Below are positions 3 to 52,082 of a DNA stretch of 64,000 nucleotides, one piece after another. Position 1 is the first letter of the stretch, and every line of letters begins with the position of its first letter. Both the position numbers and the translations under genes were made by a program. The notes under the pieces are model-generated. The model was not told the origin of the DNA and searched no databases. It saw only the letters and a list, made by a program, of their open reading frames with translations. This DNA comes from a virus. Its lineage: Duplodnaviria; Caudoviricetes. Location: IMG/VR virus record IMGVR_UViG_3300034170_000057; one strand, given 5' to 3'.

Positions 3-209
3 AGTAAGCGCGCGTTTCTCACGGAAGCCACGACGTTCGGTTTGGATGAAAAATGTGATAGCGGAAAAGTCAGCGCTGAAATAGCTGCAATGCTGACGCA
101 ATTCCACTTCGGACCTGCACCGAAAGCGAAGCGCGCCAAAAAGCCTGCTGCCACAAAGGTTCCCGTGAAATTGCTCAAATCAAATACTGTAAAATCTAAT
201 AAGAAGTAA
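3..209 (+). CDS. 3' end of a hypothetical protein with a Lys/Ala/Pro-rich tail (partial, runs off the left edge)
   Basis: Frame 3 is open from base 3 to TAA at 207-209: ...FGPAPKAKRAKKPAATKVPVKLLKSNTVKSNKK*. Not in the ORF track. Confidence 0.6.
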   Translation, partial: SKRAFLTEATTFGLDEKCDSGKVSAEIAAMLTQFHFGPAPKAKRAKKPAATKVPVKLLKSNTVKSNKK

Positions 210-231
210 AACATTTCTTAGGAACCGCATC

Positions 232-858
232 ATGCTTGAGGTCAGTATCTTTGATAGACCGTTTGTAAACTCGTGCCGCGCTATTGCCGATGGTTTTTGC
301 CTTCACGATAACAGTCTCTACTATTTTGAAAACGGCACCGCAATCGGCTTTAATGAAAAGCGCCCCGGCACGACGCAGACCGATCAAGGGTACTGGCGTT
401 ACACTGGTGTGCGGGCATTAGGCGCCAAGGCCGCGAAAGTGGAATTGGATAAGGTCAATGCACAAAGCAAATTGATCAACTATGTGCGCAACAATTTCGA
501 TACCTACGTTGAGTCCGTAATGATCAGCGGTGATACCAGTGATATCTGGAAAAAGGTATTGGTATTGGTTGCGAATGATCGTGTGTACGTTCAATTCCCG
601 GACGTGCGCGGGCGTATCAGCCTGAAAGATCCGATCCTGCGTTTGCATACGAAAATGCAGCCGCTACCGATTACGGTCATGCCCGAGCTGATTGAAAAGC
701 TAATGGGGATTTGTGAAGCAGCAGATTTGCCGCTCGACTTTGACCCTGTGGAAGTAATCTGCAATGCGTATCGTGGAACCTGCAATTCCGGCCAGCATAT
801 TGCGGCCCACGGGTACGCGATGGTTCTCCTACTGCAAAACAAAATTCAAGGTATGTAA
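232..858 (+). CDS. hypothetical protein, 208 aa
   Basis: ORF track; fits the + strand gene chain and follows a motif-A site at 185. Confidence 0.7.
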   Translation: MLEVSIFDRPFVNSCRAIADGFCLHDNSLYYFENGTAIGFNEKRPGTTQTDQGYWRYTGVRALGAKAAKVELDKVNAQSKLINYVRNNFDTYVESVMISGDTSDIWKKVLVLVANDRVYVQFPDVRGRISLKDPILRLHTKMQPLPITVMPELIEKLMGICEAADLPLDFDPVEVICNAYRGTCNSGQHIAAHGYAMVLLLQNKIQGM

Positions 859-861
859 AAC

Positions 862-1551
862 GTGACCTATTCCGAATCGCAAGTAAACGATTTCCTAGAG
901 CAGTTGCTGGCCCTGCGTAGTAGTGGGCCGGTCTACAATCCGCACGTGAAAAACGGCCAGCTTCGTTACCGTTCGTGCATTCCCGGCAAACATCAAATCG
1001 TCGATCATCACAACGGCACCTACAACGTCACCGCCAGCGACGACACGGTTATGGTTGGCGTGCATGTTACGACCGGCGAAACCAAACTGTTTTATCCGCA
1101 TGAACTGGGCCACCTGAATATCATCGACAAGCCTGTGCAGGAAGTCAGCCCTTCGACGATTGATACCCATTCGAAATGGCTCCAGCATTACGCAGCCACC
1201 AACGTGCTGCCGGGCCTCGGTGGTATTTATTCCCACCACACAAACCATTTCCCGTATTTGGTTTTGGGCTACGCAAACGAAAGCGCACGCGACAGCAAAC
1301 GCGACGACTACCCGATCATCGTTGTGTACGTCGGCCAGAACGGAAAAGTTTGGGCGAAAACGTTGGATAACTTCAACGCAACCATGAATCCGGGCGGCAA
1401 TTTCCAGTTCGCAAATGACGCCGGGTTTAAATACTTGGGCGTTATCGAAAACAACCAAATCGCCAATGGCTGGATGACCAAGGAATTGGAAGCCGCCGTC
1501 AAAGAAGCCACGACCTCCAAGGACTCGGACAATGACCAGCAAAACGACTGA
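862..1551 (+). CDS. hypothetical protein with a C-terminal DUF1653-like domain
   Basis: GGIYSHH...YLVLGYANE...IVVYVGQNGKVWAKTLDNF matches the DUF1653 pattern G.Y.H.K...Y.V...A...E...VVY....G.VW.R...F. Confidence 0.55.
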   Translation: MTYSESQVNDFLEQLLALRSSGPVYNPHVKNGQLRYRSCIPGKHQIVDHHNGTYNVTASDDTVMVGVHVTTGETKLFYPHELGHLNIIDKPVQEVSPSTIDTHSKWLQHYAATNVLPGLGGIYSHHTNHFPYLVLGYANESARDSKRDDYPIIVVYVGQNGKVWAKTLDNFNATMNPGGNFQFANDAGFKYLGVIENNQIANGWMTKELEAAVKEATTSKDSDNDQQND

Positions 1552-2692: not shown

Positions 2693-2901
2693 CAGAAATT
2701 CTACAACCTGCGCACCCGGATATTGTTCGGTTGCTGGATAAAACGCGTGGCAAAATGCCGACTCACGTCAACCTGATCGACAGTGAGTTTTACGGCTTCC
2801 CAATTATTTTAAAAGACGTGCAAGGCACCAGTGTTTACGCTATCGGTGAATCGGTAGATATGCAGTGGGTTATGCACCAACAGGAGACAGTAAATGTCTG
2901 A
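2689..2901 (+). CDS. hypothetical protein (start re-called to ATG 2689)
   Basis: ATGA overlap with the upstream stop at 2690-2692. Confidence 0.6.
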   Translation: MTEILQPAHPDIVRLLDKTRGKMPTHVNLIDSEFYGFPIILKDVQGTSVYAIGESVDMQWVMHQQETVNV

Positions 2902-4150: not shown

Positions 4151-4405
4151 ATGGATACCGAAAACGCGATGTTTTTCGGTGGGCCAGCGGACGGCGAGTG
4201 GCGGGAAGTTTTGAGTGAGGCGCCGCAGGTATTGGTGCGCAATGAATTCACAGCTGACCCCGATCCACTCGCCCAAAACGCGTGGGTCTACAAACGGCAC
4301 TTGCTGAAAGGGCCTAATGGTCGGGATTATCCGATCTACTGCACAGGCGCAATTGATCCGATCTACGCGATGTTTAAATCCTATCCTGTAGGTAAAAATA
4401 AATGA
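4151..4405 (+). CDS. hypothetical protein with an N-terminal FGGPADG motif
   Basis: ORF track; upstream GAGA; GGPxDG is common in small phage proteins. Confidence 0.6.
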   Translation: MDTENAMFFGGPADGEWREVLSEAPQVLVRNEFTADPDPLAQNAWVYKRHLLKGPNGRDYPIYCTGAIDPIYAMFKSYPVGKNK

Positions 4406-4656
4406 CGGCCTACCAATGGTTTGAAGTTCTTTACCAGCCGGTGGCTGCTGTACTTTTGTTCTTCGCGTTTACGACGGTTATCTACTGGCCTTCGCCACCA
4501 CCAAGGCAAACAAAGACGGCCAAGAAAAAGAAGAGCCGACGCCAGCGTAAAATGGAGCGTGAGATTTTCCGTCGTGCGATTGATGCGGGGGCATCGGACC
4601 ACGAAGCACGGAAAGCCGTTAGCCTGTACGTGGCACGCAGGCCCAAGATACTGTAA
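4402..4656 (+). CDS. small membrane protein with a basic C-terminal part
   Basis: Hydrophobic VAAVLLFFAFTTVIYW followed by KKKKSRRQRK; ATGA overlap. Confidence 0.6.
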   Translation: MTAYQWFEVLYQPVAAVLLFFAFTTVIYWPSPPPRQTKTAKKKKSRRQRKMEREIFRRAIDAGASDHEARKAVSLYVARRPKIL

Positions 4657-4659
4657 ATA
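4649..4659 (+). promoter_or_regulatory. motif A TACTGTAAATA upstream of the clamp loader
   Basis: One of five exact copies; ends 31 nt before the ATG. Confidence 0.6.
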
Positions 4660-8058: not shown

Positions 8059-10364
8059 TGATCGAGATTACCGGTAGCCGTTTTGGCGGTATCGTTTCGT
8101 ACAAAAAGGGTGAATTCGATTTCACTAACAACTGTGGCCTGACCACGGTTAGCGGGCACAACCGCGACTCGCAAATCTCCAAAGACCAAAACAACGGCGC
8201 CGGTAAATCTCTGCTGTTTTCTATGCTGCCTAACGTGCGTTTTGAACAGATGCCGTTGGCAGATACGAAAAAGAAAAACCGCATCCATTCGAAAGGCTCG
8301 TTCATCGAGTTCGACGTTAACAACCTCGGACATAAGTGGACGATCCGCCAGCAGGCCGGTGGCTATCAAATCTGGCGCGACGGCGAAGACCTGAAAGTTC
8401 GGGGCCAATCTAGTCAGCGTGCGCAAATTGAAGAAATCATTCCGATTACCCAAGACGAATGGTATTCCTATGTGCATCTGCAATCGCAAAAGAGATTGGA
8501 ATTCCTGTACGGCACACCACGTGCGCGAATGACCTATATCAGTGAGGTGTGGCGCCTCGATCAGTTCGACGTGCTGCGTCGGTTCTTTGAAAAGAAGATC
8601 GACGAAGTAAAAGTCGCACAGAACAAGTCGGATGCATTCAGCCACCAGCTGATGAATATCAACGATGCGCTGAATAAAAACGGCTGGAATAAGCAGCTGG
8701 AAAAGGAACTTAACGAAGCCAACGAAATCGTTAAAACCCAATCCAAGAAAGTCACGAAGTTGCAGACGCAGCGGCAGGAACTGAAAAGCCTGTCGAAGCA
8801 GGTCGAGTTCTATACGACCACGCGTGACAAGCTGAAAAAGTTGCAGGGTAAAATCCGATTCGATAAACCTACGCTGAAAGAGCAGTATCAACTGCACGAA
8901 GCGCTGGAGAAATTCGAAGAGGATAACGCCGAGTATGATCGCCGCTGTAAAAAGCTGGTGAAGAAACTCGACGAACTGGGCGACGGCGGTGATAGTAAAA
9001 CGCTGAAGAAACGTATCAAGGAAATCCGGAAAGAACTGGAAGGCCTCGAAACGGAAGACAAGCGTCTTGAGAAAGTCCGCGACAAGCACGACGCAGCTGT
9101 ACGCGAACTGGAAAACTTGGACGATCACGTCGATCCGGATTTGCGTAAATACTTGACGCAATGCAACAAAGAAAAAGTCGATCCAATGGAGGCGCTGAAA
9201 GAGGAATACAGCACCGCCAAAACGACGATGAAACTGGCTGACCTGCTACACGATCACGACGACGGCGCATGCCCGACGTGTATGCAGAAAATCAACCTGA
9301 AGGATTTGGAAAAGACCATTGCGAACGCCAAGAAGCGCAAAGGTAAAGCACACTCGATGATCCACGCGCTGGAACTGCGAATCACAAAGCAGGACAACAC
9401 GGATATCATCAAGGCCCTGAAGTTCGACGAACGTTCGTTCTACGCGGCTCGCAAGAAAATCAAGGCGCTCCGGGCTGAACTGGAAAAGCTCGAAGACCAA
9501 ATCGAAAACTCTGTGCGCTTCGATGAAATCACCGGGCAAATGGCTGACCTGAAAAAGCCTAAGCGGCCTAAGCAGGAACCGATTATCTCGGTTGAGAAAA
9601 TCGAACAGCAAGTGGAAATGATCGACGAAGCACGTCGCCTGAAAGCGCGGCTGTCTGAATTCGACGAAGCACCAGAAGACGACAATATCCTCAAGCGTCT
9701 GGCCGAAGTCGAAGCCAAGCTGGAAAAGGTCGAGAAAAAGTATTCCAAAGCTCACAAAGTAACCGTGCGCTATAGCTCGCTGCGTGCCGAATGGAAACTG
9801 CTGAAGAAACAGCGCGAAGAGGCCAGCGTCAAGGTCGAGGAATTTAAACCTCTGATCAAGAAAATGCAGCGCTTCAAAGTTCTGGTGAAAGCCTACAGCA
9901 ACAAAGGGCTGAAGCTGCACGCCATGCACGAAATCGTCTATGGCCTAGAGCAGAACTACAACAAATATGCACAGCTGATTTTCGCAGAGAATTTCAAGTT
10001 CAAAGTGGAAGCCAAAGAAGACGGCGTGCATATCATCGTAGACCGGGGCCAAGGCAACGTCAGCGATGTACGTTCGTTGTCCGGGGCCGAGTCCGATAGT
10101 TTCCGTCTGCTGCATTTCCTTGCGTGTGTGATCATGGCTAAGGACGCACGCCGGGTAAACTTGGCAATCCTCGACGAACCGGATGCACACATGGATGACG
10201 CGACTACCAGCCTATTCGTGGAGCGTTACATTCCGTTCCTGCGCAAGCTGGTGCCACAAGTGTTTATCATCACGCAAAAAGGTAAGCACCTGCACCCGAA
10301 TTGTTCTTACGTCACCGTTGAAAAACATAAGGGGGTTTCGAATGTCCGTTATGACGCGGCCTAG
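8058..10364 (+). CDS. SbcC/Rad50/T4 gp46-like recombination endonuclease ATPase subunit
   Basis: Walker A GHN(RDSQISKDQN)NGAGKS, Q-loop HLQSQ, long coiled coil with CPTC zinc hook, signature LSGAES, Walker B/D-loop ILDEPDAHMD, H-loop-position ITQ. Confidence 0.9.
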   Translation: MIEITGSRFGGIVSYKKGEFDFTNNCGLTTVSGHNRDSQISKDQNNGAGKSLLFSMLPNVRFEQMPLADTKKKNRIHSKGSFIEFDVNNLGHKWTIRQQAGGYQIWRDGEDLKVRGQSSQRAQIEEIIPITQDEWYSYVHLQSQKRLEFLYGTPRARMTYISEVWRLDQFDVLRRFFEKKIDEVKVAQNKSDAFSHQLMNINDALNKNGWNKQLEKELNEANEIVKTQSKKVTKLQTQRQELKSLSKQVEFYTTTRDKLKKLQGKIRFDKPTLKEQYQLHEALEKFEEDNAEYDRRCKKLVKKLDELGDGGDSKTLKKRIKEIRKELEGLETEDKRLEKVRDKHDAAVRELENLDDHVDPDLRKYLTQCNKEKVDPMEALKEEYSTAKTTMKLADLLHDHDDGACPTCMQKINLKDLEKTIANAKKRKGKAHSMIHALELRITKQDNTDIIKALKFDERSFYAARKKIKALRAELEKLEDQIENSVRFDEITGQMADLKKPKRPKQEPIISVEKIEQQVEMIDEARRLKARLSEFDEAPEDDNILKRLAEVEAKLEKVEKKYSKAHKVTVRYSSLRAEWKLLKKQREEASVKVEEFKPLIKKMQRFKVLVKAYSNKGLKLHAMHEIVYGLEQNYNKYAQLIFAENFKFKVEAKEDGVHIIVDRGQGNVSDVRSLSGAESDSFRLLHFLACVIMAKDARRVNLAILDEPDAHMDDATTSLFVERYIPFLRKLVPQVFIITQKGKHLHPNCSYVTVEKHKGVSNVRYDAA

Positions 10365-10878: not shown

Positions 10879-11600
10879 TCGTCTACGGCTTCGCGCATAC
10901 AGCGCCGGATAAAGTTTTGGTGCATCTTCGTGGACTCGGAGTGCCCCGCGCACAAATCGCGATGCTAGGTCACGATTTCGAAGCTCGTAAGCACCTGATT
11001 TTTATTGATGCTGCGAGTTTCGAAGCCGGTCGCGATCTTGCTGAAGTAGCGAACTGCATTTGCTACGTGTGCGACGATCCAATTTCCCTTGCGCCCTACG
11101 ATTTAATTCCTGCTGATTACAAGGCGGCTGAAGACTTTCACGTGGACGGCTACACGCTCACGGAATTTAAAACGCTGCCGGTATTCAAACAGGTCACGGG
11201 CGCCCGGAAGAAATTCGATATGATTCAGGTAGCCAAGAAGCACGCTTCTAGCCAGCTAACATTCTTCACAAATTTCATGACGTTTATCTACAGCATGCCG
11301 ATGCAAACGCACCAACTCCCGGTGCGACAACTCGCGTGTAAATGGTTGGCCTCTACCGAGACTTATCGGCAACTCACAAACCGAATCGAGAAGCTGCGCA
11401 AAGGCGTTTTCCTGACTGACAAACAGGTCGAACGTTTGGTGGCTCTGCTTAGTTCGGATGTTGTCGCGATTTATCGTGAAGGTCTGCAAATGGAAGGCGA
11501 CGAAGACGAAGTGGCGATGAAATTGAAAATCAGCGCCTACGAAATGCGTTACATCCGTGCAATCAATCGGGGCGCTGCTGAAGCGTTGATAGACCCATGA
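10875..11600 (+). CDS. hypothetical protein, 241 aa (start re-called from TTG 10635 to ATG 10875)
   Basis: ATGA overlap with the 45-aa ORF explains the upstream sequence better than the TTG extension. Confidence 0.65.
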   Translation: MIVYGFAHTAPDKVLVHLRGLGVPRAQIAMLGHDFEARKHLIFIDAASFEAGRDLAEVANCICYVCDDPISLAPYDLIPADYKAAEDFHVDGYTLTEFKTLPVFKQVTGARKKFDMIQVAKKHASSQLTFFTNFMTFIYSMPMQTHQLPVRQLACKWLASTETYRQLTNRIEKLRKGVFLTDKQVERLVALLSSDVVAIYREGLQMEGDEDEVAMKLKISAYEMRYIRAINRGAAEALIDP

Positions 11601-11749
11601 AAAACGTTGACGCCGAGAAACAAAAATTCAAGTTGCTGTGCCTGATAAAACACCGCTGGGCCAATTCGTCCGACCGTTGCAAGTGGGCGTGCTGGCGGTG
11701 TAAGCGCTGCAATAAAATCATTCACGTATTGGGAAGCGCACCGGAATGA
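11597..11749 (+). CDS. small Cys/His-rich protein, DUF1660-like, 50 aa
   Basis: MKNVDAEKQKFKLLCLIKHRWANSSDRCKWACWRCKRCNKIIHVLGSAPE; LC...H.W...CxRC pattern; ATGA overlaps at both ends. Confidence 0.6.
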   Translation: MKNVDAEKQKFKLLCLIKHRWANSSDRCKWACWRCKRCNKIIHVLGSAPE

Positions 11750-12264
11750 CCGATCAAAAATTCAATGTTGAAATCGAACGTGAACCTGAAACGGATTACG
11801 TTGGCGAAGCTCGGTGGTCGCCGTGTGCTGGTTTGGAACGCGGAACAATCGAAAATATTGGTTATGTCAAAGTGGATGATAGCGAGGCTCCGACTACCGA
11901 CGACTGGGAACGTATCACGAAACTCAAAATGGAAGCGATGGGAATTTCTGAAGAATTCCTGACGGGTGACGTACAGCTTATTCCTTTCTTTGATGGGGGT
12001 TTTGATAACCGTGTCACCGTATCACCAGCACGCAAGACATTCATAGACGAAACATTCCGCCGTGTAGTCAAGCGTACTATGCGCCCCAGCACGCACTGTA
12101 TCGCGACCCGCAACGGCGTCATGGCGTTAGGTAAGCGTTTCCGTTCTCTGCGACTGGCCCGCGTGTGGTACAAAAACATGATGGGCAATATCGAAATCAA
12201 ATTCGCGGATAAACCCGTGGTGCCTGATGAATCTTGGGTGCCGTTGGCAGAATATGGGAAATAA
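11746..12264 (+). CDS. hypothetical protein, 172 aa (carries FRSLRLA motif)
   Basis: ORF track; ATGA overlap. Confidence 0.65.
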   Translation: MTDQKFNVEIEREPETDYVGEARWSPCAGLERGTIENIGYVKVDDSEAPTTDDWERITKLKMEAMGISEEFLTGDVQLIPFFDGGFDNRVTVSPARKTFIDETFRRVVKRTMRPSTHCIATRNGVMALGKRFRSLRLARVWYKNMMGNIEIKFADKPVVPDESWVPLAEYGK

Positions 12265-15210: not shown

Positions 15211-15516
15211 ATGCACCATACTGTAAATAAGATGAAACGCGAACTGTGCGCAATTATTCTCAACGAATTAGAGCGTCAGGCACGGCCCATGCTGAAGGGT
15301 ATTCCACACTACCAGAAGCAGGCACGCATTCAATTATTTGTGCAGGGTCAATACCTGCGCATGGGCGGCCCGCTTAATCGCGAACTCACTCCATATTTCC
15401 ACGAATCAGTACCAGCCAACGAATGCGAAAAGCTGGTTGATGCAGACCTCGACGTGCTGATTGCCATCGCGGCTAAACTCGGCTACGCGCTGGAACTGAC
15501 GTGGCAACGCAAATAG
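15211..15516 (+). CDS. hypothetical protein with a possible HTH-like C-terminus (true start may be 15232)
   Basis: LDVLIAIAAKLGYALELTW resembles the end of XRE HTH domains. Confidence 0.5.
   Translation: MHHTVNKMKRELCAIILNELERQARPMLKGIPHYQKQARIQLFVQGQYLRMGGPLNRELTPYFHESVPANECEKLVDADLDVLIAIAAKLGYALELTWQRK
15219..15229 (+). promoter_or_regulatory. motif A TACTGTAAATA, ~300 nt upstream of the SbcD-like gene
   Basis: Exact copy. Confidence 0.5.
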
Positions 15517-18158: not shown

Positions 18159-18198
18159 AAAAAACCCGTCTCTCTGTAAAAGGAGTGGCGGGTTTTTT
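18159..18198 (+). terminator. intrinsic terminator, possibly bidirectional
   Basis: AAAAAACCCGTC...GGCGGGTTTTTT. Confidence 0.8.
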
Positions 18199-18211
18199 GC
18201 TATCTAGACCA

Positions 18212-18250: not shown

Positions 18251-19249
18251 TTGCAAATACAATCAAAATACATTGATGATAATCCAAATATCATTGATTT
18301 GAAAAATGCCCGAAACGCAAACGAAGTCGTAACGGTATTAACCCGGATCAACACGGCTACCAGCGTTTTGGTTTCGAAATTCAACCAAAAGAAGCTGTCA
18401 TTTCTCAAAGTATCCGATGGTGTGGAAGCTCTGACATTCTGCGTCGATTCATTGGTAGAACTCCGTTGTGCGCGTGCTGCTGCGCAAGAGTTTAGCGATT
18501 CGAAACGTGATCGCTGTTTCCAAATGATTGCCGCACAAATGCAGACCATTCGCGCTTTCCAGAAAACTCTTATGGATTTGATTGACAGTGTTTGTTCTCC
18601 GCGAATGGACGAACACCTGAACTACCTTTCGGAAATTGTTTATAGTTTCCTATCAAAGATCAGCCACACCACGCAGCTGCATATTCGTTTACCGGGCTAT
18701 CAAATGATTTGCTTCCGAACCGATAGCGGCATACAGGATAAAAACGGATTCGTTAGCGGGCCAGTCACCGTCAAAGTGACGTTGTACGGCGGGCAGTACC
18801 GCATTGCAATCCCGGATACCCCGTTTGTATTGTCCGAAGAAACCGCCGTCGATACGGCAACGGATGTGCAGACGTATATCAAGGGCAACCTTTCCGATTT
18901 CGAATACATCGACAAACCGGTGCCGAAAGACGACAAATTGCTCGCTTCCAAACTGGTGAAAAGCGTCGATGTAACTGACGACCGTCTTAACGTTGTGTTG
19001 AAACCGTTTGTGAAGCCGGAAGATATCAATAAGTTTCTGACGCAGGTTCTGCCGTATCTCAAGCGTGCGGTAGATTTGCCGAATACTGATATCATCCATC
19101 GCGTGTCGCAGTACGGAAACAATTTCATGATTTCCTTTATCGTAGGTAAGCGGAAAATCTACGATGTGCGATCCCTGAACAAGCTGACGAAACTGCTGAA
19201 CGTCGGCAAAACAGAAAAAGACAAACTCAACACAATCATGGAATCCTAA
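18251..19249 (+). CDS. putative virion structural protein, 332 aa (TTG start)
   Basis: ORF track; TAATTTAA site upstream; first gene of a co-directional block. Confidence 0.55.
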   Translation: MQIQSKYIDDNPNIIDLKNARNANEVVTVLTRINTATSVLVSKFNQKKLSFLKVSDGVEALTFCVDSLVELRCARAAAQEFSDSKRDRCFQMIAAQMQTIRAFQKTLMDLIDSVCSPRMDEHLNYLSEIVYSFLSKISHTTQLHIRLPGYQMICFRTDSGIQDKNGFVSGPVTVKVTLYGGQYRIAIPDTPFVLSEETAVDTATDVQTYIKGNLSDFEYIDKPVPKDDKLLASKLVKSVDVTDDRLNVVLKPFVKPEDINKFLTQVLPYLKRAVDLPNTDIIHRVSQYGNNFMISFIVGKRKIYDVRSLNKLTKLLNVGKTEKDKLNTIMES

Positions 19250-23865: not shown

Positions 23866-23890
23866 GAAGGGGGCCATGCGCCCCCTTTTG
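23866..23890 (+). terminator. intrinsic terminator
   Basis: GAAGGGGGC-CATGC-GCCCCCTTTTG. Confidence 0.75.
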
Positions 23891-23926
23891 TCGGTTTGTG
23901 GTGCAATTTGCGGTTAGGGGGAATGT

Positions 23927-24715: not shown

Positions 24716-25065
24716 GGCCGACGCGTGTTGCCCCTAAACGGGTTAAGAGTGTTGCAAGCGGGCCGAAGAAAGCAAAAGTGGTGGCTAAAGTACGCCGCGC
24801 CTCTTCCGTTGTTTACGGCGACCGCTCCGAGTGGATGGCAATTCGTGCGAAGGTAATTGCACGCGACGGAAACAAATGCACGAAATGTCCGAACACCACT
24901 TATTTGCAGGTCGATCACATTCGCCCCGCCAGTGCTGGTGGACAGACCGTAATGCACAACCTGCGTACCCTTTGCGCCGACTGCCACGCCGCACAACACA
25001 GCAGCCGACATTCCAAACATCTAATCCTAGCGAAGAAGAAAAAAGATGCTAAAGATGCCACCTGA
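24712..25065 (+). CDS. HNH endonuclease
   Basis: W..IR..V..RDG.KCTKC....LQVDHIRPASAGGQTVMHNLRTLCADCHAAQH. Confidence 0.9.
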   Translation: MRPTRVAPKRVKSVASGPKKAKVVAKVRRASSVVYGDRSEWMAIRAKVIARDGNKCTKCPNTTYLQVDHIRPASAGGQTVMHNLRTLCADCHAAQHSSRHSKHLILAKKKKDAKDAT

Positions 25066-25729
25066 CATTGAGCCGGAATTCGCCGGTTCGTGGGAAGCGT
25101 TTTTAGAATTACCCGATGTAAAAAAACTTGAACCAAAAGTATTGAAAGAGTGTTTTCGAATCCTTTTGGGACAGGCTGGGGTAAAGGTCAAAACGCTCCA
25201 CACACTGAAGGATTTCTTTACTGTAAATAAACTGTATGGCGCATTCAATTCAGCGCTTACAGCCAAGTTTCTTTTGTATCATCTGAAACCCGTTAAGCAC
25301 ACGTTTGAAGTCGTGCTGGATGCTGACGACCTGACCAACGTTGTGTACGGTTTCAAGATCGTGGGCAAAGTTAAAATGAAAGCCCAACGGTTTAGCTTGG
25401 ATTATTTGCTGAATCGTTTGGTGCAGGTCAAGGTTCTAAAGGAATTGCCAGACACATTGCAGCTTGATCGACGCACCATCATGCGCGGCGGCGAAAAAAC
25501 TACAATCGTAGCTGATCGCTGCCCCGGAACAATCCGCCAAGTAAAACCTTGGCAGGAAAATGTGGTGGTTGTAAACCAAGCCATGAAAATCAGTATTGCG
25601 CGACTGAAAGGTGATCACCTCTATTTGCATTATGAGGTTTTCTTCCATACAGAAATGCCGCACTACCCGCTATTAGAAAAAGAACTCTTAGCCGTCTGGC
25701 GAAGGGCCTCAATTGGAGACTTACGATGA
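25046..25729 (+). CDS. hypothetical protein, 227 aa
   Basis: ORF track. Confidence 0.6.
   Translation: MLKMPPDIEPEFAGSWEAFLELPDVKKLEPKVLKECFRILLGQAGVKVKTLHTLKDFFTVNKLYGAFNSALTAKFLLYHLKPVKHTFEVVLDADDLTNVVYGFKIVGKVKMKAQRFSLDYLLNRLVQVKVLKELPDTLQLDRRTIMRGGEKTTIVADRCPGTIRQVKPWQENVVVVNQAMKISIARLKGDHLYLHYEVFFHTEMPHYPLLEKELLAVWRRASIGDLR
25219..25229 (+). promoter_or_regulatory. motif A TACTGTAAATA, intragenic, upstream of the SNF2-like helicase block
   Basis: Exact copy. Confidence 0.45.
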
Positions 25730-26142
25730 GCCTTAGTACCGCTCTGGATGGGATCGAAAGCATCCTGACCATTATCAAGAAGGGCGATGCGCCGCCTGAG
25801 AAAAAACTCGAAGCAATTAAAGACTTGGGCGAGATTTTGCGCAACGATATTCAGGATTTGGCCGACGCTGTTTACTCGGACTACGTACCTGAATTGCCGC
25901 CGATTTCATTCGACATGGAACTGGCGGTAAAGGATCTTCTCGAAGCCTTCCGTAAACAGGTATACAACAACCTCTACTGCTACTACGATTTGTCGCCATT
26001 CAGAGACGAACCCGATCCATACGTGCGTGTCGCAATTGCAACTGCGCTTGTGAAATATGCGCAGGAACAAAAACGCGAACCGAACTCGACGTGGGCCGCG
26101 ATCATCCAAACTGAAGGCGTGATTTCCGAGGGTGACGAATGA
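25726..26142 (+). CDS. hypothetical protein, 138 aa
   Basis: ATGA overlaps at both ends. Confidence 0.65.
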   Translation: MSLSTALDGIESILTIIKKGDAPPEKKLEAIKDLGEILRNDIQDLADAVYSDYVPELPPISFDMELAVKDLLEAFRKQVYNNLYCYYDLSPFRDEPDPYVRVAIATALVKYAQEQKREPNSTWAAIIQTEGVISEGDE

Positions 26143-33108: not shown

Positions 33109-33162
33109 AGCACCCGGCCCTCGTTTCCTATTGGATTCGGGGGCTTCTTCGTTGTTGGAGAA

Positions 33163-33173
33163 AACTGTAAATA
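33163..33173 (+). promoter_or_regulatory. motif A variant AACTGTAAATA upstream of the DNA polymerase
   Basis: Intergenic; ends 33 nt before the ATG. Confidence 0.6.
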
Positions 33174-33206
33174 TACCGTAGGCCTAATCCCCTAACGGGT
33201 ATCTCT

Positions 33207-36170
33207 ATGAAGTATGAATATGTAGAGTTTTCCCACAAGTATGGCAAGGTGCTGAAGCAGTACGACATTACCGGATTCGATAACGTTGAACTAGCCAAGC
33301 ACGTAACCAAAAAAGCTCGTGGCAAAATTCTGTTTGTGTTGGACTACATGCCGGGCGAGGCGTTGCGCAAGCGGCGTATTCTCGATGGGGCGACCGGCGA
33401 TCTTATGCAGAACCTTTTTTGGGCTGCCGAAGAGTATTACAAAGCGCCGAACAAGTTGGACGATTACAACTGGTTGTGCATGAGTTATCACAGCTTCAAA
33501 ACCGTCGGCGGTGCGCCGGGGTTTATGGAGATTGCACAGCAAGAATTCAAGAAGCGTTTGGAATACATTATCTCGGTTTACAAACCGGATACGGTTGTGA
33601 CGTTCGGGTCTGATCCGACCAAAGCAATCAGCGGCGATTTTATCGCGCAGCACAAAAGCGAACGTGGTGTTTTGTGGCAACACTTCTACGGGGTGCCGAT
33701 CAAAGCCAGCGTTACGGTGAAGGGCGACACTCACAAATTCAATCACGTATCTACCCTGTCATTGCGCTCATTGCAGAAATCCGATGACTCGATGGCAGCA
33801 GCCGGTTACGTGGCGCGGAACCTGACGACCTGTCTTAATGACGGCGAGTTGATGTACAAGATTCCGAAGTTGGATTATAAGATCGTGATGGTTGATACGA
33901 TCAAGAAATTCGACAAGATGTTGAAAGACATTACCAACGCAGAATACGTGGCAATCGACACGGAAACGCGAAATCTAAAACGGAGGAAAAACTACACGGT
34001 GACGTGGCAGTTCGCGACGGATGCGGGGAAGGCGTATATCTTGCCTTTCCTGCATAAGGACACGCCATTCCTCCCGAAAGAAATTCAGTACATCAAAGAG
34101 AAGTTGCGTGACTACTTCGAATATAAATCGAAGAACAAATACAACCTCTACGCAAACGCCGCGTTCGACCTGATCGCTGCACGTCGTGACCTTGGTGTTC
34201 GTTTCTTCAAATGCAAACTGTGGTGTGTTATCTCGGCGGAATTCGCCAAGGATGAAAACCACAAAGCGATTCAAGGTATCAGCGGGCGGAACTATTATTC
34301 GCTGCTGAATATCACCATGCAATATGGTTGTCGTGCTTACTACGAATCCGATTTCGGTAAGGAACAGCGCGCATTCATTGCGGACATGGATCTAGAAGGG
34401 CCTGTGCTTACGTACATGGCCCTCGACGTTATTGTGCTGCTACACATCCAGAAATTGCAGCTGAAGCAGGCCAAGAAAATTGGCTATAAGAAATATGAAT
34501 CGCTCGTTACTGAGCAGCTGAGTGACCAGATTCACACGCTCTCCAATCTTGAATACAACGGCTCCTATGTCGATATCGACTGGTTGTTCAAACTCAAGTC
34601 GAAAGATTCACATATTGTGCGGGAGAAAAACCGCGTAATTAAAGCGCTGTACGAATCGGAAGGTGTGGCGAAAGCGAACAAGCTGCTGGCGAAGAAAACC
34701 GGCGTGCCTGCCATGGGCCTGTTCGGTCGAACGAAAACGAAGCTGTTCAAGATCAATAAGGACGAACACAAGCAGCTGCTGTTCTTCGAAGTGCTGAAAC
34801 TCAAGCCGCTGACGATGAACAAAAAGGGTCAGGGCAAGATCGACAAAGACTTCCAAAAGAAATACGAAGACGTACCGGAAGTTAAGCTGTTTACCGAACT
34901 GACCAAGATCGAAAAACTCTACAACGCATACGTGAAGAGCTTCATTAAAAAATGGGGCGAAGACGAAGACTTCCGATTCGACCGCTGCATGCGTCCTCGA
35001 TTCGGTTATCTCGATGTGGTTACGGGTCGAACATCGGCACGCGATCCAACGTTGCAGACAATTCCGTCGCGTAGTGAAATGGGTAAACTGATTAAACGAT
35101 TGTTCATTGCACCGAACGGTCGAATAATTATCAAGGTGGACTACTCGGCGCACGAAGTACGATGCTGGTCGCTGATTTCCGGCGATGGCGCGGTAGCCGA
35201 TGCATTCCGGATTGGTTTGAAATTGCGTGAGAAATTCAAGCGCAAACCAACCCTCGACCTTGCCCAAGAAATTGACCTGAAAGGTGACGTACACAAAATC
35301 AACGCCGCGTTCTTCTTCCGTAAGAAAATTCAGGAAGTTGACAAGGTGATGCGTCAAGCGGTTAAGCAGGTAATTTTCGGTCTGATTTACCAGCAAGGCG
35401 CGAAGGGTACAGCGAAGTCGATTAATGCCACGGTCGAAATGGTTGAAGAGCTGACGACACAGTTCTTTAAACGCTTCCCTGTTGGCGGTAAGTGGTTTGA
35501 GAAGGCCAAGGCACACGCACGTAAGCACCTGTACGTGGAATCGCCTGTGGGCCGTCGTCGTAACCTGTGGGCGTTGATCACGCCGCAATCGCATGAGGAC
35601 TCCGGCAACATCCTGTCGCGTTCCGAACGGCAATCTGTAAATAGCCCAGTACAGGGCATGGGTTCTGATTTCATGATGACGGGTGCCCGCTGCATTGAAC
35701 GTCGCCGGTTTGAGCATTTCCAGAAGACCGGTCACTATCCTGATTTCATTCAGGCAAATAGCGTACACGACTCCCTTGAATTCTCGTGTGCATACGAAGA
35801 CATTTGGCTGGCAATTCAGATGATCGAAGAGGGCCTGACCAACGACGTAGAACGCGAAATGATCGCACGTCACGATTTCAAGTTTGATATCCAATTGGAA
35901 ATCGACTTCGAATTCGGTCACTCGCTCGATAAGTGCGAAGGTTGGAATTACGCTTTGACTGGTGATTTCAAGACGAAAGATAAATACGCATTCAACGAAG
36001 TAATCATGAAAACTCTTCGGGGTCAGCGCGACGATCTAGGTTTCGATCTTGATCCAAACGCCACGTTCAAACAAATCATGGCGCGCATGAAAGAGGACGC
36101 ACCGGAATGGGCCTTGAAACAGAAAAACTTTTGGACGAAACAGGGTGTGAAGATCAAGGCTACGGCGTAG
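33207..36170 (+). CDS. polA: family-A DNA polymerase with a 3'-5' exonuclease and an N-terminal UDG-like domain
   Basis: Exo I DTET, Exo II NAAFD, Exo III YMALDV; TGRTSARDPTLQTIP; motif A DYSAHEVR; motif B RQAVKQVIFGLIY; motif C VHDS. The ~210-aa N-terminus has a UDG-like layout (KILFVLD...I..YKPDTVVTFG). Confidence 0.92.
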   Translation: MKYEYVEFSHKYGKVLKQYDITGFDNVELAKHVTKKARGKILFVLDYMPGEALRKRRILDGATGDLMQNLFWAAEEYYKAPNKLDDYNWLCMSYHSFKTVGGAPGFMEIAQQEFKKRLEYIISVYKPDTVVTFGSDPTKAISGDFIAQHKSERGVLWQHFYGVPIKASVTVKGDTHKFNHVSTLSLRSLQKSDDSMAAAGYVARNLTTCLNDGELMYKIPKLDYKIVMVDTIKKFDKMLKDITNAEYVAIDTETRNLKRRKNYTVTWQFATDAGKAYILPFLHKDTPFLPKEIQYIKEKLRDYFEYKSKNKYNLYANAAFDLIAARRDLGVRFFKCKLWCVISAEFAKDENHKAIQGISGRNYYSLLNITMQYGCRAYYESDFGKEQRAFIADMDLEGPVLTYMALDVIVLLHIQKLQLKQAKKIGYKKYESLVTEQLSDQIHTLSNLEYNGSYVDIDWLFKLKSKDSHIVREKNRVIKALYESEGVAKANKLLAKKTGVPAMGLFGRTKTKLFKINKDEHKQLLFFEVLKLKPLTMNKKGQGKIDKDFQKKYEDVPEVKLFTELTKIEKLYNAYVKSFIKKWGEDEDFRFDRCMRPRFGYLDVVTGRTSARDPTLQTIPSRSEMGKLIKRLFIAPNGRIIIKVDYSAHEVRCWSLISGDGAVADAFRIGLKLREKFKRKPTLDLAQEIDLKGDVHKINAAFFFRKKIQEVDKVMRQAVKQVIFGLIYQQGAKGTAKSINATVEMVEELTTQFFKRFPVGGKWFEKAKAHARKHLYVESPVGRRRNLWALITPQSHEDSGNILSRSERQSVNSPVQGMGSDFMMTGARCIERRRFEHFQKTGHYPDFIQANSVHDSLEFSCAYEDIWLAIQMIEEGLTNDVEREMIARHDFKFDIQLEIDFEFGHSLDKCEGWNYALTGDFKTKDKYAFNEVIMKTLRGQRDDLGFDLDPNATFKQIMARMKEDAPEWALKQKNFWTKQGVKIKATA

Positions 36171-37635: not shown

Positions 37636-38065
37636 CATTAGCCCGATATTTAGTCTGGCTGACACGTTCACCCACACCGTGCAGCAGATTGAAACTTTCG
37701 AAGATTTTGGATCGGCCCATGACGGCCACCATATCGGGCTGTTCTTCCGGAAACTAGTTGATCAACCAATGATGATCGACTATGAAAATCCTGAGCCGCT
37801 GAATCGCTTTTGCAAGATGTACAATTTCGTGAATAAGCGCCGTTCTGTCTACGGGCATTTGTTTGTAATCTCGGATGTTTCCAAGGTGGAACTGGCGCCT
37901 CACAAGATGGTGATTTCCTGTAACAAAAAGGAACGCTACGATTCGTCGCAGCACCCGATCACGACCTACCGACAAAAACTGTTAATATTCAAGAGCAGCA
38001 CAGGTTCCGTGCTGGCCCTGAGTGGCAACGCAGTATCTCCTTACCTTGTGACTGAGGCTGTTTAA
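37619..38065 (+). CDS. hypothetical protein, 148 aa
   Basis: ORF track. Confidence 0.55.
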   Translation: MMKRSSISPIFSLADTFTHTVQQIETFEDFGSAHDGHHIGLFFRKLVDQPMMIDYENPEPLNRFCKMYNFVNKRRSVYGHLFVISDVSKVELAPHKMVISCNKKERYDSSQHPITTYRQKLLIFKSSTGSVLALSGNAVSPYLVTEAV

Positions 38066-42580: not shown

Positions 42581-42591
42581 TACTGTAAATA
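42581..42591 (+). promoter_or_regulatory. motif A TACTGTAAATA upstream of the DnaC-like gene
   Basis: Exact copy; ends 36 nt before the ATG. Confidence 0.55.
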
Positions 42592-42627: not shown

Positions 42628-43503
42628 ATGGCAAGGGAACTCAAGCCAGCCAAGAAGCGCACACTGTCCTCGGAACTGAAAATGTCCAAGGAGGACAAAC
42701 CGCTCAAGAAACTTAAATTCGAGCGGGAGGAAGAAGAGGCCAGTAAAGAACGGGAAGAAAAAACCAGTTCTATCCAACCGCGCCGCCGTGCCGTAGTGGA
42801 GAAAGTAAACAGCATAAGAAAGCCGAAGGGAAAGGTTAGCGCACCATCGCGCATGCCTGCACCATCCCTGAAATTCCGTTTTGATTCGGATCGCGTGAAA
42901 CTGCTGAAGTCGCAAGGTGTGGACGGTACTGCATTGCAAGTAATGCGTAGCCCGTTTCTGCTGGATGACGCGCTTGTCTCCATTACTCCGATGGTGCCGA
43001 AATGGTTGCCCGAGGATTACCAGATTGCAAAAACCAGTGTGAAGCGACAGATTGAAACCTGTTATCGCATGCTGACAAATCCGTTGCATGGTTCGCCAAT
43101 TATTGGCATTGGTTCCATGGCAACAGACGAACGTGCAAAGTTTATGGCAATGAGCATTATGGATGCAGCCATTGATCAGCAGCGTTCGGGTTCACACAAA
43201 GGTAAACTGCTTCCGGTGTGGCACCGGGTATTTGGCGGATACCAAGACGAATTGCGTGATGAAAAACAACGTCGAAACATTTCGATGGTTATCATTGCAA
43301 ATGTGGGACCAGACTCGACGCCGCATAAGCTGGAAAAGGTGCGGGACTTGCTGGAGAAGTACGACAATATTCCGCGAATCGTTGTAGTGAACGGGTGCGA
43401 CCCGGTTACTTTCTTTGCGGAGAAAATGCGAATGCCGATGCAGTTTGCTTTGATGCTCAATAGCAAGCGCAGTGATAAAGCCGACTTGATGGACATTTTA
43501 TGA
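42628..43503 (+). CDS. degenerate DnaC/IstB-like P-loop protein with a basic N-terminus
   Basis: MVIIANVGPDSTPHKLEKVRDLLEKYDNIPRIVVVNG parallels DnaC LLIIDDLG.E..T....E.L..LL......PTIVTTN, but both Walker motifs are altered. Confidence 0.45.
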   Translation: MARELKPAKKRTLSSELKMSKEDKPLKKLKFEREEEEASKEREEKTSSIQPRRRAVVEKVNSIRKPKGKVSAPSRMPAPSLKFRFDSDRVKLLKSQGVDGTALQVMRSPFLLDDALVSITPMVPKWLPEDYQIAKTSVKRQIETCYRMLTNPLHGSPIIGIGSMATDERAKFMAMSIMDAAIDQQRSGSHKGKLLPVWHRVFGGYQDELRDEKQRRNISMVIIANVGPDSTPHKLEKVRDLLEKYDNIPRIVVVNGCDPVTFFAEKMRMPMQFALMLNSKRSDKADLMDIL

Positions 43504-44282: not shown

Positions 44283-44304
44283 TCATTACAAATGCAATAC
44301 AATG

Positions 44305-44329
44305 AGGGGGCCTATATGGCCCCTTTTTT
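44305..44329 (+). terminator. intrinsic terminator ending the replication block
   Basis: AGGGGGCC-TATAT-GGCCCCTTTTTT. Confidence 0.8.
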
Positions 44330-44351
44330 GTTGCCTGAAATCCCCTTTGCG

Positions 44352-44359
44352 TAATTTAA
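44352..44359 (+). promoter_or_regulatory. motif B TAATTTAA
   Basis: Between a terminator and the tail sheath gene. Confidence 0.6.
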
Positions 44360-44425
44360 ATACAGGAAATGCGTTTATTCGCGATTCTTATTTCCCGTAT
44401 TCCAACCATATAAGGGGTTTCATCC

Positions 44426-49053: not shown

Positions 49054-49057
49054 CGTG

Positions 49058-49093
49058 AAAGCGGGTTGTCCAATTTCGGGCACCCCGCTTTTT
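49058..49093 (+). terminator. intrinsic terminator
   Basis: AAAGCGGG-TTGTCCAATTTCGGGCA-CCCCGCTTTTT. Confidence 0.7.
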
Positions 49094-49119
49094 CCGTTGA
49101 ATATGGAGAATATTTTCTC

Positions 49120-50787
49120 ATGGCCGATCCTAGCTTTGAGGAACTGTGGCCTGTCCAACTGGATTTGGTTGGTCCCGGTGCTCCAATAGCGGAGCGTTCG
49201 ACTTTTCAAATGCGGGCAGTCGTTACTTTTGACGACAATTCGCAACACGAAGTCGAGGCAGAATGGTCTGTTGCTTCCGAACAGTACGGCACGATTACCC
49301 TGAGTGGTTTGTTTACTGCTGGATCGGTGCAGGCTGGTACGCGCCCGGTTCAAGTTTTGTGCAGGTATTACCACGCAGGTTCGGATTCCACGCTGACGGC
49401 AACAGTTGTTATTAACGTGCGGGATATTGATACACCGCCCGCCCTGATTTCTATTTCCATCGGCGGTAAACCCGAGGTGGAGAAAAACACAATTGAACCA
49501 TACGTAATTACAGCGAATTACGACAATGGCTCAAGCGCAATCGTTGTACCGACCACTTTTGTTTCCAGTCGCCCCAGTGTCGCCACAATTGACACTACGG
49601 GTTTAGCGCATTTCCAAAAGATTCGCGGTTCTGCAATGGTTCGATTCACCGCCTCTTACGCAGAGCATGGTGTGACGCGCCAGATTTTCATGGACATTCT
49701 GGTTGTCGATTCTTCGATTTATCCGGTTAAGGCTTTTGTGATCGGGCCGACAATTGTTACGGAGCGCGGACGGGCTAGTTTTGGTCTGGATGTTCTTTTT
49801 GACAATGGCAAAAATAATGAGGTTGTTGCTAATTGGATCAGCACCAATCCATTGGCCGGTACGATTTCATGCACGGGCGTTTTCTGCGCCGACGCAGTTG
49901 AAGGTGTGGTTTCCACCACGATTATTGGCACCTTCGAATTTGATGGAATCGTCACTAGTGCGTCAATTGAATTAAGCGTCGTCGGCCTCACGGTGCGCGC
50001 TGAAGCAATTGAAATCGAAGGCCCTCCGAAAGTGCGCGAAGGCTTGGTTGTTCAATATTACACGACGTTGATTTTCAGTGACGGCACGCGTAAATCCGTA
50101 GTGGCGAAAATCCACACGGTGACGACTGTGGGCCACCTTGACGACGGCAACCAATTCTATGCGGCGCCTAAAGTTGAAGCGGAAACTCCCGTTAATCTCA
50201 TGGCGTATTACGAAAACCTTTCGGCTTATAAAACCATTGACGTTGTGCCGTCCACTACGCTGCCTGTCAGTTCGTGGATTGAATTGCGCTCGCCAATGTA
50301 CGTCGGTGAATATCAGTCGCTTAAATTCCACGTCGTTTATGCAGACGGTACAGACATTGTGCTGCCCGCTAAGTGGACGCTTTCCAATAACCATATCGCG
50401 TCGATTTCCAATGCTGGAGTTTTACACGCGGTGCAGGTAATGGAAACCGCAGAACTGACTATTTACGCTGCGCTGTCAATTAGCGGTGTTGAATTGGAAG
50501 CGAGTTTGCCCGTGACCCTTATCGACAATCGCACGTACCCAATCCATACCCGCATAGAAGGGCCGGAAACGTTACGTGCAATGGTGCCCACTATGTACAG
50601 GGCGCTAGTCGAATTCAGTGATGGTTCCGAACGCGTAGCAAGTGCTTTGTGGTTCTGCTCTGACGACAACGTTTCAGTCGTTCTCGGCGTTGTTACCGCA
50701 ACCGTTCCCGGCACTTACATGCTGCAAACTTCCTACACTCTCCAACACGAAACAGTCACCGCGACGAAAGAGATTATTGTGACATGA
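49120..50787 (+). CDS. Ig-like repeat virion protein (start re-called to ATG 49120, 555 aa)
   Basis: About six repeats of I.GP..V.E......V.F(D/S)DG....V.A.W; GGAG SD; the track's TTG start lies inside the terminator. Confidence 0.8.
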   Translation: MADPSFEELWPVQLDLVGPGAPIAERSTFQMRAVVTFDDNSQHEVEAEWSVASEQYGTITLSGLFTAGSVQAGTRPVQVLCRYYHAGSDSTLTATVVINVRDIDTPPALISISIGGKPEVEKNTIEPYVITANYDNGSSAIVVPTTFVSSRPSVATIDTTGLAHFQKIRGSAMVRFTASYAEHGVTRQIFMDILVVDSSIYPVKAFVIGPTIVTERGRASFGLDVLFDNGKNNEVVANWISTNPLAGTISCTGVFCADAVEGVVSTTIIGTFEFDGIVTSASIELSVVGLTVRAEAIEIEGPPKVREGLVVQYYTTLIFSDGTRKSVVAKIHTVTTVGHLDDGNQFYAAPKVEAETPVNLMAYYENLSAYKTIDVVPSTTLPVSSWIELRSPMYVGEYQSLKFHVVYADGTDIVLPAKWTLSNNHIASISNAGVLHAVQVMETAELTIYAALSISGVELEASLPVTLIDNRTYPIHTRIEGPETLRAMVPTMYRALVEFSDGSERVASALWFCSDDNVSVVLGVVTATVPGTYMLQTSYTLQHETVTATKEIIVT

Positions 50788-52082
50788 TTATTTCCCTTGC
50801 CGCATCACCTGCTGATTTCAAGCAGTTCGAATGGATGTACAACGCGGGTAAAAGTTTTAAATTGCGGCTGGACGATACGCCTGTCACGGTCGAGGCTGAC
50901 GATTTGGTCGGTTTCCGTAAAGCAACACGGGGGCCGACCGCTGGCGCGTATCAAGTGGTACTCGCCAAATACCCGCAAAAGATATACCGGTCGATCAAAC
51001 AGGAACAGGTCGATAAATTCATCAAGCAATTCAAAGAGTACAAGGGGATTCCGGAAGCGCCAAAAAAGGAAGGCGCACGGCACCAGTACATGCGGAAAAA
51101 CCAGTTGGAAAATGATCGTCAGGAATCACAGTTTTATGTGAGCCCGTCGAAGCCTCGTGAAGTTCACAGCTACGACCGCGACGATTACCAATGGCGAAAG
51201 GTAATGCACCCTGTGAACGTGGCAACCAAGCATCACGGGACAACCCGTGCCACTATTCGACCGGGTGACATTGTGGGCATGCGCTACCTGCGCAAATCCC
51301 ATGGTGGTTATGTGATTATGCCAAACGGCGAACGCGTGTTGATTTCGCATGAACTGTACGAAGAAATCACGAACAATACCGACATTGAACCGCGTGCCCA
51401 GCAGCAGACGGGACTTGTTGAATTTGCCGAGTTGGCAAAGTCACTTCCTATCCGCTCGCGTGCAATTAAAATCCCGCGTAAACCACGTGACGTTATGACA
51501 CGCGTTTCCCGCACGGGCGTAACCGAAACCGCGAAGCATGTGGCGCGCAATAAGCCACTGACCACCACTTTCGATTACAAAGATATCGACGAAGATTTCG
51601 CATTCGAACCAGAAGACGAAGAAAACCTGTTGAATCCACCTGAAGAACAGGAAGATTTCCCGGATGAAGGGGCGTCTAATACTGTAAATAAAGGAGAAGA
51701 ACCGGGTATTACTTCGCTTGACGACGAAGACTTCGAAGAGGAAGACGATCCAGAAATGGACTTCCACAAAGATCAGGAAACCGATGAGGATGGCGAGCCA
51801 ATCGAGGATGACACCGAAGTAATTGCACAGGAAGGACAAGTGCTGATTGCGCGGGATAATGCCGAGTGGGTAATCGTCAGCCAAGAAGAGCATAACATGT
51901 CGGAAACGCTTGTGCTTTTCAACGAGGAATCCAAAGCTCTTCGTCATTACAAAGTACCGCTCGGTGAAGACTTGCGGAATCTGAAATCTGTTACGGTCGG
52001 TCGCATTATTACTGGCCCTGAGTTGGACAAGATTTTGGAAAAGGCCGCTGACCTTGAAATGACTGCTGGGAAACGTCTATGA
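50784..52082 (+). CDS. hypothetical protein, 432 aa, with a basic N-terminal half and a long acidic linker
   Basis: ORF track; starts MIISLAAS like 58644. Confidence 0.65.
   Translation: MIISLAASPADFKQFEWMYNAGKSFKLRLDDTPVTVEADDLVGFRKATRGPTAGAYQVVLAKYPQKIYRSIKQEQVDKFIKQFKEYKGIPEAPKKEGARHQYMRKNQLENDRQESQFYVSPSKPREVHSYDRDDYQWRKVMHPVNVATKHHGTTRATIRPGDIVGMRYLRKSHGGYVIMPNGERVLISHELYEEITNNTDIEPRAQQQTGLVEFAELAKSLPIRSRAIKIPRKPRDVMTRVSRTGVTETAKHVARNKPLTTTFDYKDIDEDFAFEPEDEENLLNPPEEQEDFPDEGASNTVNKGEEPGITSLDDEDFEEEDDPEMDFHKDQETDEDGEPIEDDTEVIAQEGQVLIARDNAEWVIVSQEEHNMSETLVLFNEESKALRHYKVPLGEDLRNLKSVTVGRIITGPELDKILEKAADLEMTAGKRL
51680..51690 (+). promoter_or_regulatory. motif A TACTGTAAATA, ~390 nt upstream of the ligase
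   Basis: Exact copy. Confidence 0.5.

Follow-up and report, generated by a model that had tools for sequence, protein, structure and literature searches.

Introduction

The late promoter of phage T4, TATAAATA, is served by the sigma factor gp55 together with gp33 and the sliding clamp gp45, and phage sigma factors such as gp36 of phiEco32 and gp28 or gp33/34 of SPO1 retarget the host core polymerase to phage motifs, thereby giving rise to temporal classes. Here we describe a candidate promoter element, Motif A (TACTGTAAATA, with the 9-mer core CTGTAAATA), in a stretch of 64,000 nucleotides (nt) from the IMG/VR virus record IMGVR_UViG_3300034170_000057 (Caudoviricetes), hereafter referred to as the window. 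An original prediction, made from the letters of this window and from its open reading frames (ORFs), had proposed Motif A as a phage-specific promoter of replication genes. The closest relative of the window is Pseudomonas phage HRDY3 (313.7 kilobases (kb); 79% identity over 64% of a 20-kb probe), followed by Pseudomonas phage Lu11 (280.5 kb; 77% identity, the aligned stretch being the polymerase gene); judged by this sequence likeness, the window is part of a Lu11/HRDY3-like jumbo phage. HRDY3 and Lu11 are both jumbo myophages of the 'Lupandier' group, whose members have no RNA polymerase of their own and encode a sigma-70-like factor (PMC7412058; PMC7824862). According to a review, the jumbo phages of this group also have gp33 orthologues (PMC7824862).

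The element has been marked before in one of these relatives: In the GenBank record of Lu11 (NC_017972 / JQ768459), 16-nt regulatory features labelled 'putative middle/late promoter' start exactly at CTGTAAATA and precede the genes of DNA polymerase gp097, gp084, gp087, the endonuclease gp112, gp143, gp164 and gp192, the last of these lying after the portal gene. Two more features, before gp151 and the SSB gene gp176, start at the variant CTGTAAATT/G, and three of the annotated features are orthologues of the window sites at 15219, 33163 and 42581. Full-text literature searches, whose reach stopped short of the Lu11 genome announcement, returned no paper that discusses or tests the motif. Motif A is not new: it was predicted in Lu11 in 2012, apparently without a later test. 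In the following, we compare the window with both relatives and set out with good confidence a reading in which the non-structural genes of Lu11/HRDY3-like jumbo phages (those for replication, repair and accessory functions) have Motif A as their core promoter, with a phage sigma factor as its most likely reader.

Distribution and Conservation of Motif A

The window, with a guanine-plus-cytosine content of 50%, holds five exact copies of TACTGTAAATA and a one-mismatch copy, AACTGTAAATA, all of which lie on the plus strand (Table 1; sites are named by the first letter of the motif, and the C of the motif lies two positions further on, for example 33163 and 33165). At one mismatch or fewer, these six copies compare with 0.41 expected from dinucleotide shuffles, none of which reached six. 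The 9-mer CTGTAAATA occurs seven times, in 7/7 cases on the plus strand and including the copy with its C at 35635, against 0.18 expected and a shuffle maximum of one. These word scans and shuffles bear out the exact, core and position-185 variant copies that the original prediction had listed, and the distances of 31–36 nt that it had given between three sites and the following start codons hold as well (31, 33 and 36 nt for the copies ending at 4659, 33173 and 42591). An extra site was absent from that list: the conserved variant AAAAACTGTTAATA, with its C at 37979, lies in a 21-nt block that is identical at HRDY3 205415 and Lu11 62521, with one more base differing in Lu11.

Since all 66 genes modelled in the window (66/66) are on the plus strand, strand bias within the window alone cannot tell transcription from other polar processes, and the gene blocks of the relatives are informative here. 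Our gene models rest on codon usage and reproduce the annotated strand blocks of the relatives. HRDY3 holds 18 copies of CTGTAAATA, 15 on the plus and three on the minus strand (reversed-word controls: 0 and 1), and the three minus-strand copies all fall within the all-minus gene block at 110–159.6 kb; Lu11 holds 33 copies, eight on the plus and 25 on the minus strand (controls: 0 and 2). Across the window, HRDY3 and Lu11, 57 of the 58 exact copies are co-oriented with the local genes, and the sole opposed copy is located 30 nt upstream of the lone minus-strand primase gene of Lu11, which makes it effectively co-oriented. A matrix refined from these 58 exact sites yields, at a cut-off of at least 12 bits, 132 sites with the genes and 2 against them in the three genomes. 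Motif A is moreover enriched between genes, where 28 of 64 sites in HRDY3 (p ~1e-11) and 27 of 58 in Lu11 (p ~1e-13) are found and ~10% are expected, and this enrichment was counted even with longest-ORF gene models. The motif often stands 25–36 nt 5' of a start codon: a start codon follows within 10–60 nt at 38% of the sites vs 14% of random positions, a crude comparison whose control is inflated by in-frame internal starts. The genome-wide scan of the relatives that the original prediction had called for gives a gene-oriented and intergenically enriched distribution, not an orientation-independent or random one. Chance and coding bias as causes of Motif A were rejected on the basis of the shuffles, the strand bias and the intergenic enrichment.

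Each of the nine window sites (9/9) has a collinear counterpart in both HRDY3 and Lu11. Of the sequence 5' of the polymerase gene, a single long block, GAAAACTGTAAATA, is invariant in the HRDY3/Lu11 comparison; it is located between a terminator-like hairpin, whose stem is kept with changes in both relatives, and a diverged leader. Upstream of the gene at 42628, TACTGTAAATAA is the sole long invariant run in this comparison. Motif A is gene-oriented, including in minus-strand blocks, it is enriched between genes and follows terminators, and it is invariant within diverged upstream regions; on these grounds the claim of a phage-specific promoter is supported, and transcription very likely starts at Motif A.

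The same observations bear on a different explanation, namely that Motif A is a signal at the RNA level (processing, stability or translation) or has a role at the DNA level (replication, packaging, recombination or modification). Co-orientation with genes is also compatible with an RNA signal, and the regular spacing of ~8–10 kb in the window could hint at a DNA-level role. However, several copies stand right after terminator hairpins, where upstream RNA is unexpected, start codons follow at a fixed distance, a conserved start-site-like RTA comes after the motif, and the orientation flips with gene blocks rather than around one origin. We assign this explanation a minimal probability.

Strong terminators composed of a hairpin and a T-run close transcription units at 18160–18200, 23870–23900, 33116–33161 and 44304–44330, and each of the four is followed within ~20–40 nt by a copy of Motif A or of a second element, Motif B (TAATTTA), which is described below. 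Contigs of a peat metatranscriptome cover 99% of the stretch and leave uncovered 33117–33187 (terminator and Motif A) and 44299–44394 (terminator and TAATTTA); a DNA-type run spans both gaps, and the same metatranscriptome contigs bridge the Motif A copies at 25219, 35633 and 42581 unbroken. These gaps are suggestive, but as they come from one study and contigs cannot show starts, they were not used as evidence.

Table 1. Motif A copies and associated features of the window, with their counterparts in HRDY3 and Lu11.
Feature	Position	Strand	Motif C	Context	Counterparts in relatives
Motif A variant TACTGTAAAAT	185..195	+	187	36 nt before ATG 232; matrix score 17.6 bits	HRDY3 168137; Lu11 97507
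Motif A, exact	4649..4659	+	4651	31 nt before clamp-loader ATG 4691	HRDY3 172551; Lu11 93610
Motif A, exact	15219..15229	+	15221	between stop 15204 and a small ORF (ATG 15232); ~296 nt before SbcD-like gene (15526)	Lu11 85320-85335, a 'putative middle/late promoter' feature immediately 5' of the gp112 endonuclease gene
Motif A, exact	25219..25229	+	25221	inside ORF 25046-25729; followed by N4-GTA	HRDY3 192688; Lu11 75249
Motif A AACTGTAAATA	33163..33173	+	33165	intergenic; 33 nt before DNA polymerase ATG 33207; top matrix score, 25.7 bits; predicted start ~33180	Lu11 67310-67325, annotated as promoter
Motif A, weaker copy ATCTGTAAATA	35633..35643	+	35635	inside polymerase gene, upstream of clamp gene; 13.2 bits	HRDY3 203077; Lu11 64854 as CTGTAAACA; conservation may reflect coding constraint
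Motif A, candidate variant AACTGTTAATA	37977..37987	+	37979	78 nt before ATG 38066; 20.7 bits	
Motif A, exact	42581..42591	+	42583	intergenic; 36 nt before ATG 42628 (phrog_20094 protein)	Lu11 57718-57733, annotated as promoter
Motif A, exact	51680..51690	+	51682	inside ORF 50784-52082; 388 nt before NAD-ligase gene	HRDY3 219471; Lu11 48800
Terminator-like GC-rich hairpin with U-rich tail	33116..33161	+		directly 5' of the putative polymerase promoter; -25 kcal/mol, z = -2.9	
Motif B, TAATTTA(W)-N3-RTA	16611, 18212, 22964, 44352, 58492, 58611	+		window copies	

Gene Classes Preceded by Motif A and Motif B

Downstream of Motif A, the window carries the clamp-loader gene, the SbcD-like gene, a giant helicase block, the DNA polymerase gene, the clamp region, the gene of the phrog_20094 protein and the NAD-ligase gene. 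The copy at 4649 contains the TAA stop codon of ORF 4402-4656, whereas the copies at 25219, 35633 and 51680 are located deep within ORFs; downstream of the first of these three lie ORF 25726-26142 and a gene encoding a helicase of 2023 residues. The gene labels of the original prediction proved right for the clamp loader, the family A DNA polymerase, the SbcD-like phosphoesterase, the clamp and the NAD ligase, but not for the supposed DnaC-like gene (42628-43503), whose product has no Pfam match and matches phrog_20094, a family annotated 'DNA polymerase'. ORF 50784-52082, which holds the copy at 51680, codes for a KMPT-N domain protein (Pfam PF20294).

Taken together, the window and the annotated parts of HRDY3 and Lu11 show Motif A 5' of the genes for polymerase, clamp loader, SbcD, SSB, primase, topoisomerase and ligase. 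Its use extends to other kinds of genes: At 1–50 kb of HRDY3, it heads arrays of small hypothetical genes together with a Nudix hydrolase gene; in both relatives, it is also found 5' of operons that hold both sigma-like genes (see below), and after the portal gene it stands in tandem with TAATTTA. The structural-gene stretches of HRDY3 contain no copy of Motif A.

Virion genes are preceded by Motif B, TAATTTA(W), which has the same geometry as Motif A in the form of a hexamer followed by N4-RTA (TAATTT-N4-RTA). It is strictly co-oriented with genes, the counts of copies with and against them being 6 vs 0 (window), 18 vs 1 (HRDY3) and 18 vs 2 (Lu11). Motif B precedes the tail sheath gene (44426), the connector/head block, the units at 18251 and 22999 and other virion units, and it is unannotated in the two stretches of the Lu11 record that were examined. 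As TAATTTA heads virion genes, Motif A represents the non-virion class. The contrast between replication and virion genes that had been drawn originally thus holds in the window, where TAATTTA heads the virion units, but specificity for replication does not: the accessory arrays, the sigma operons and the post-portal locus of HRDY3 and Lu11 go beyond it. Motif A is better called a non-structural (early or middle) promoter than a replication-only promoter, and its timing is probably early or middle rather than late.

A rival reading is a late function, in which Motif A would be the counterpart of T4 TATAAATA and would be read by a gp55-like factor. Such a function draws on the sequence TGTAAATA, which is one base away from TATAAATA, on the compact, -35-less build of both elements, on the wording 'middle/late' in the Lu11 record and on the single site after the portal gene in HRDY3 and Lu11. 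It is at odds with the position of Motif A 5' of the replication and repair genes named above, with the presence of TAATTTA at the tail sheath, head and connector units, and with the structural-gene stretches of HRDY3. Furthermore, exact TATAAATA is not enriched, with 1 copy with and 0 against genes in the window, 0 and 2 in HRDY3, and 5 and 1 in Lu11, where 0.9–3.7 are expected. We consider a late function highly improbable. Of the likeness to the T4 late promoter, which the original prediction had noted, the one-base resemblance of TGTAAATA is what persists.

Anatomy of the Element

An alignment of the 58 exact sites reveals an A-rich extension (A/T, A/T and A in the three positions before the C of the motif, -3 to -1). 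Nothing is conserved 5' of this extension, where the alignment has no information content and no conserved box near -30, and Motif A therefore has no -35-like element. On the other side, a purine-T-A is kept 4 nt after the motif (A in 43 of the 58 sites), so that the full element reads aAAACTG-TAAATA-N4-RTA. If the A of RTA is taken as +1, TAAATA occupies -12 to -7, where -10 hexamers of the sigma-70 family are placed, with T-12 and A-11 kept and an A at -7. In the mechanism that we propose, TAAATA would serve as a -10-like hexamer and AAACTG, at -18 to -13, as an upstream extension, while the A of RTA, ~7 nt 3' of the motif, would be the first transcribed base, leaving leaders of ~25–30 nt.

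Neither the TTGACA-like -35 hexamer of sigma-70 consensus promoters, expected 16–18 nt upstream, nor the combination of TG at -15/-14 with TAnnnT that marks extended -10 promoters is found in Motif A, and a sigma-70 consensus scan picked up none of its window sites. There is no sense-strand sigma-70 match of at least 10/12 in the window or in HRDY3, and no classical early-promoter class was seen in them; in the 30–46 kb part of the window, sigma-70 consensus matches are depleted (5 vs 16 ± 3.8 expected from shuffles). MotA-dependent middle promoters of T4, which combine a conserved activator box near -30 with a sigma-70 -10, are no better match, as the stretch from -45 to -19, counted from the predicted start, has no conserved position.

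This anatomy is relevant for an alternative assignment of the reader, according to which the host sigma-70 holoenzyme recognizes Motif A, either unaided, Motif A being an atypical extended -10 promoter, or helped by an activator or appropriator of the phage as in the MotA/AsiA system of T4, and the phage sigma factor serves TAATTTA. T-12 and A-11 of the hexamer are compatible with sigma-70. The missing -35 element, the A that replaces the critical T at -7, the TG that is one base out of the extended -10 register and the failure of all sites to pass the consensus scan nevertheless argue against it, as does the fact that Motif B (TAATTT) is nearer to the TAnnnT of sigma-70 than Motif A.

A Phage Sigma Factor as Candidate Reader

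One sigma family is common to HRDY3, Lu11 and the further phages of the group named below and was found by tblastn in 84 phage records: phrog_17569, represented by gp174 of Lu11 and by 133536-134573 of HRDY3. The protein comprises 340 residues with a sigma2 and a C-terminal helical domain, and its Sigma70_r2 score is above the Pfam cut-off. A structure model based on 40 homologues, with a mean predicted local distance difference test (pLDDT) score of 80.9, has an N-terminal part that is large and helical, followed by a disordered linker and a small helical domain at the C-terminus. A Foldseek comparison of this model with the PDB returned E. coli sigma-70 chains as top matches (probability 1.00, E ~5e-4), whereas a sequence-only search against the PDB gave no match. 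The search for a phage sigma factor that the original prediction had suggested thus leads to a conserved member of the sigma-70 family in the relatives. A second sigma-like protein is encoded between the topoisomerase and DnaB helicase genes (HRDY3 124727-125830, minus strand; Lu11 gp184); its Sigma70_r2 score of 19–20 bits is below the Pfam cut-off, and the Lu11 orthologue has no Pfam match.

In metagenome contigs of close relatives (up to 314 kb), the neighbours of the sigma gene on either side, at 9238-9747 and 11231-11857, have Pfam matches to Tad2-like and Tad3, two families of anti-Thoeris sponges.

The motif is shared by further phages of the group. Exact CTGTAAATA occurs 31 times in Erwinia phage Y3 (control 1), 28 times in Dickeya phage AD1 (control 1) and 24 times in Yersinia phage fHe-Yen9-02 (control 3), and phage NCTB has 22 copies of AACTGTAAA. 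The SSB gene is preceded by AAACTGTAAA in Y3, AD1, fHe-Yen9-02 and NCTB, and PaBG has AAACTGTCAATA at this place. According to the proposed mechanism, the divergent phage-encoded sigma-70-family factor phrog_17569 would direct the host RNA polymerase core to Motif A.

Several findings weigh against this reading. About 40% of the Motif A sites are within ORFs, where conservation is possibly in part coding. The sigma gene is located outside the window, ~34 kb upstream in HRDY3 coordinates, and PaBG encodes the sigma factor yet is only weakly enriched in the motif. Finally, the sigma gene itself is placed behind Motif A: the motif lies 32 nt upstream of it in Y3, AD1 and fHe-Yen9-02, and in Lu11 and HRDY3 the gene is part of an operon headed by tandem Motif A sites. 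Because of this position of the sigma gene and because no early class of the sigma-70 type is seen, the assignment of the sigma factor to Motif A is insecure. The sigma factor may be supplied initially by some other route and then activate its own gene; alternatively, Motif A may be read by a different factor and Motif B by the sigma factor. This other factor could be the host holoenzyme with a further factor, or the second sigma-like protein. For the host sigma-70 holoenzyme as reader, it can be said that both sigma-like genes are downstream of Motif A, as would be expected of Motif A products, and that Motif A would need a reader from the outset of infection, as no separate class of sigma-70-type early promoters was seen on the sense strand. 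In view of the sequence anatomy detailed above, we rate this alternative as unlikely, and with regard to the reader as such we lean slightly towards the phage sigma factor over host sigma-70.

The arrangement leads to a further, quite doubtful idea, in which the whole transcription programme would be run from two versions of a -35-less core, TAAwTw-N4-RTA, namely AAACTG-TAAATA for non-structural and TAATTTA for virion genes, with no sigma-70-type early promoters at all. As Motif A sites precede both sigma-like genes, initial transcription from Motif A would then require either a sigma factor delivered with the virion or an unrecognised reading by the host holoenzyme. If true, such a two-version programme would constitute a takeover logic that has not been described for jumbo phages lacking an RNA polymerase.

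The two motifs supply a usable map of transcription units for an uncultivated giant phage, with Motif A marking replication, repair and accessory units and TAATTTA marking virion units. Lu11-like phages infecting Pseudomonas, Erwinia, Dickeya and Yersinia share one promoter word and one divergent sigma family, and the group therefore lends itself to work on how a jumbo phage that encodes no RNA polymerase redirects that of its host; the interest of the element itself is modest unless the reading factor proves unusual.

Comparison with Known Promoter Systems

Motif A resembles the T4 late promoter in that both are compact, A/T-rich -10-type elements without a -35 element for which the phage supplies a specificity factor to the host core, this factor being putative in our case. 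It differs in that it needs the AAACTG extension, does not carry TATAAATA at -10, and is found 5' of replication and accessory genes instead of virion genes. The candidate sigma factor differs from gp55 as well: with 340 residues, a sigma2 and a C-terminal helical domain, it is not gp55-sized. With extended -10 promoters of sigma-70 (TGnTATAAT), Motif A has in common the independence from a -35 element, a TG just 5' of a hexamer that begins with TA, and a predicted start ~7 nt after the hexamer; however, its TG is directly adjacent to the hexamer and thus one base off, position -7 is A, and an invariant C and an A-tract are located upstream. The phage sigma promoters of phiEco32 and SPO1 follow the same logic as proposed here, with motifs and sigma lineages that differ and with a factor assignment that is putative in the present group.

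The closest counterpart is the annotated promoter of Lu11. The Lu11 features are predictions too, come from a phage that is ~77% identical to the window phage in the polymerase gene, and are placed at or next to gene boundaries, whereas the copies deep within genes (orthologues of 25219 and 51680) are unannotated in the two Lu11 stretches examined. Motif A of the window has the same sequence, with CTGTAAATA at the 5' end of the 16-nt element, follows the same rule of co-orientation 5' of start codons, and occupies orthologous places before gp097, gp084 and gp112.

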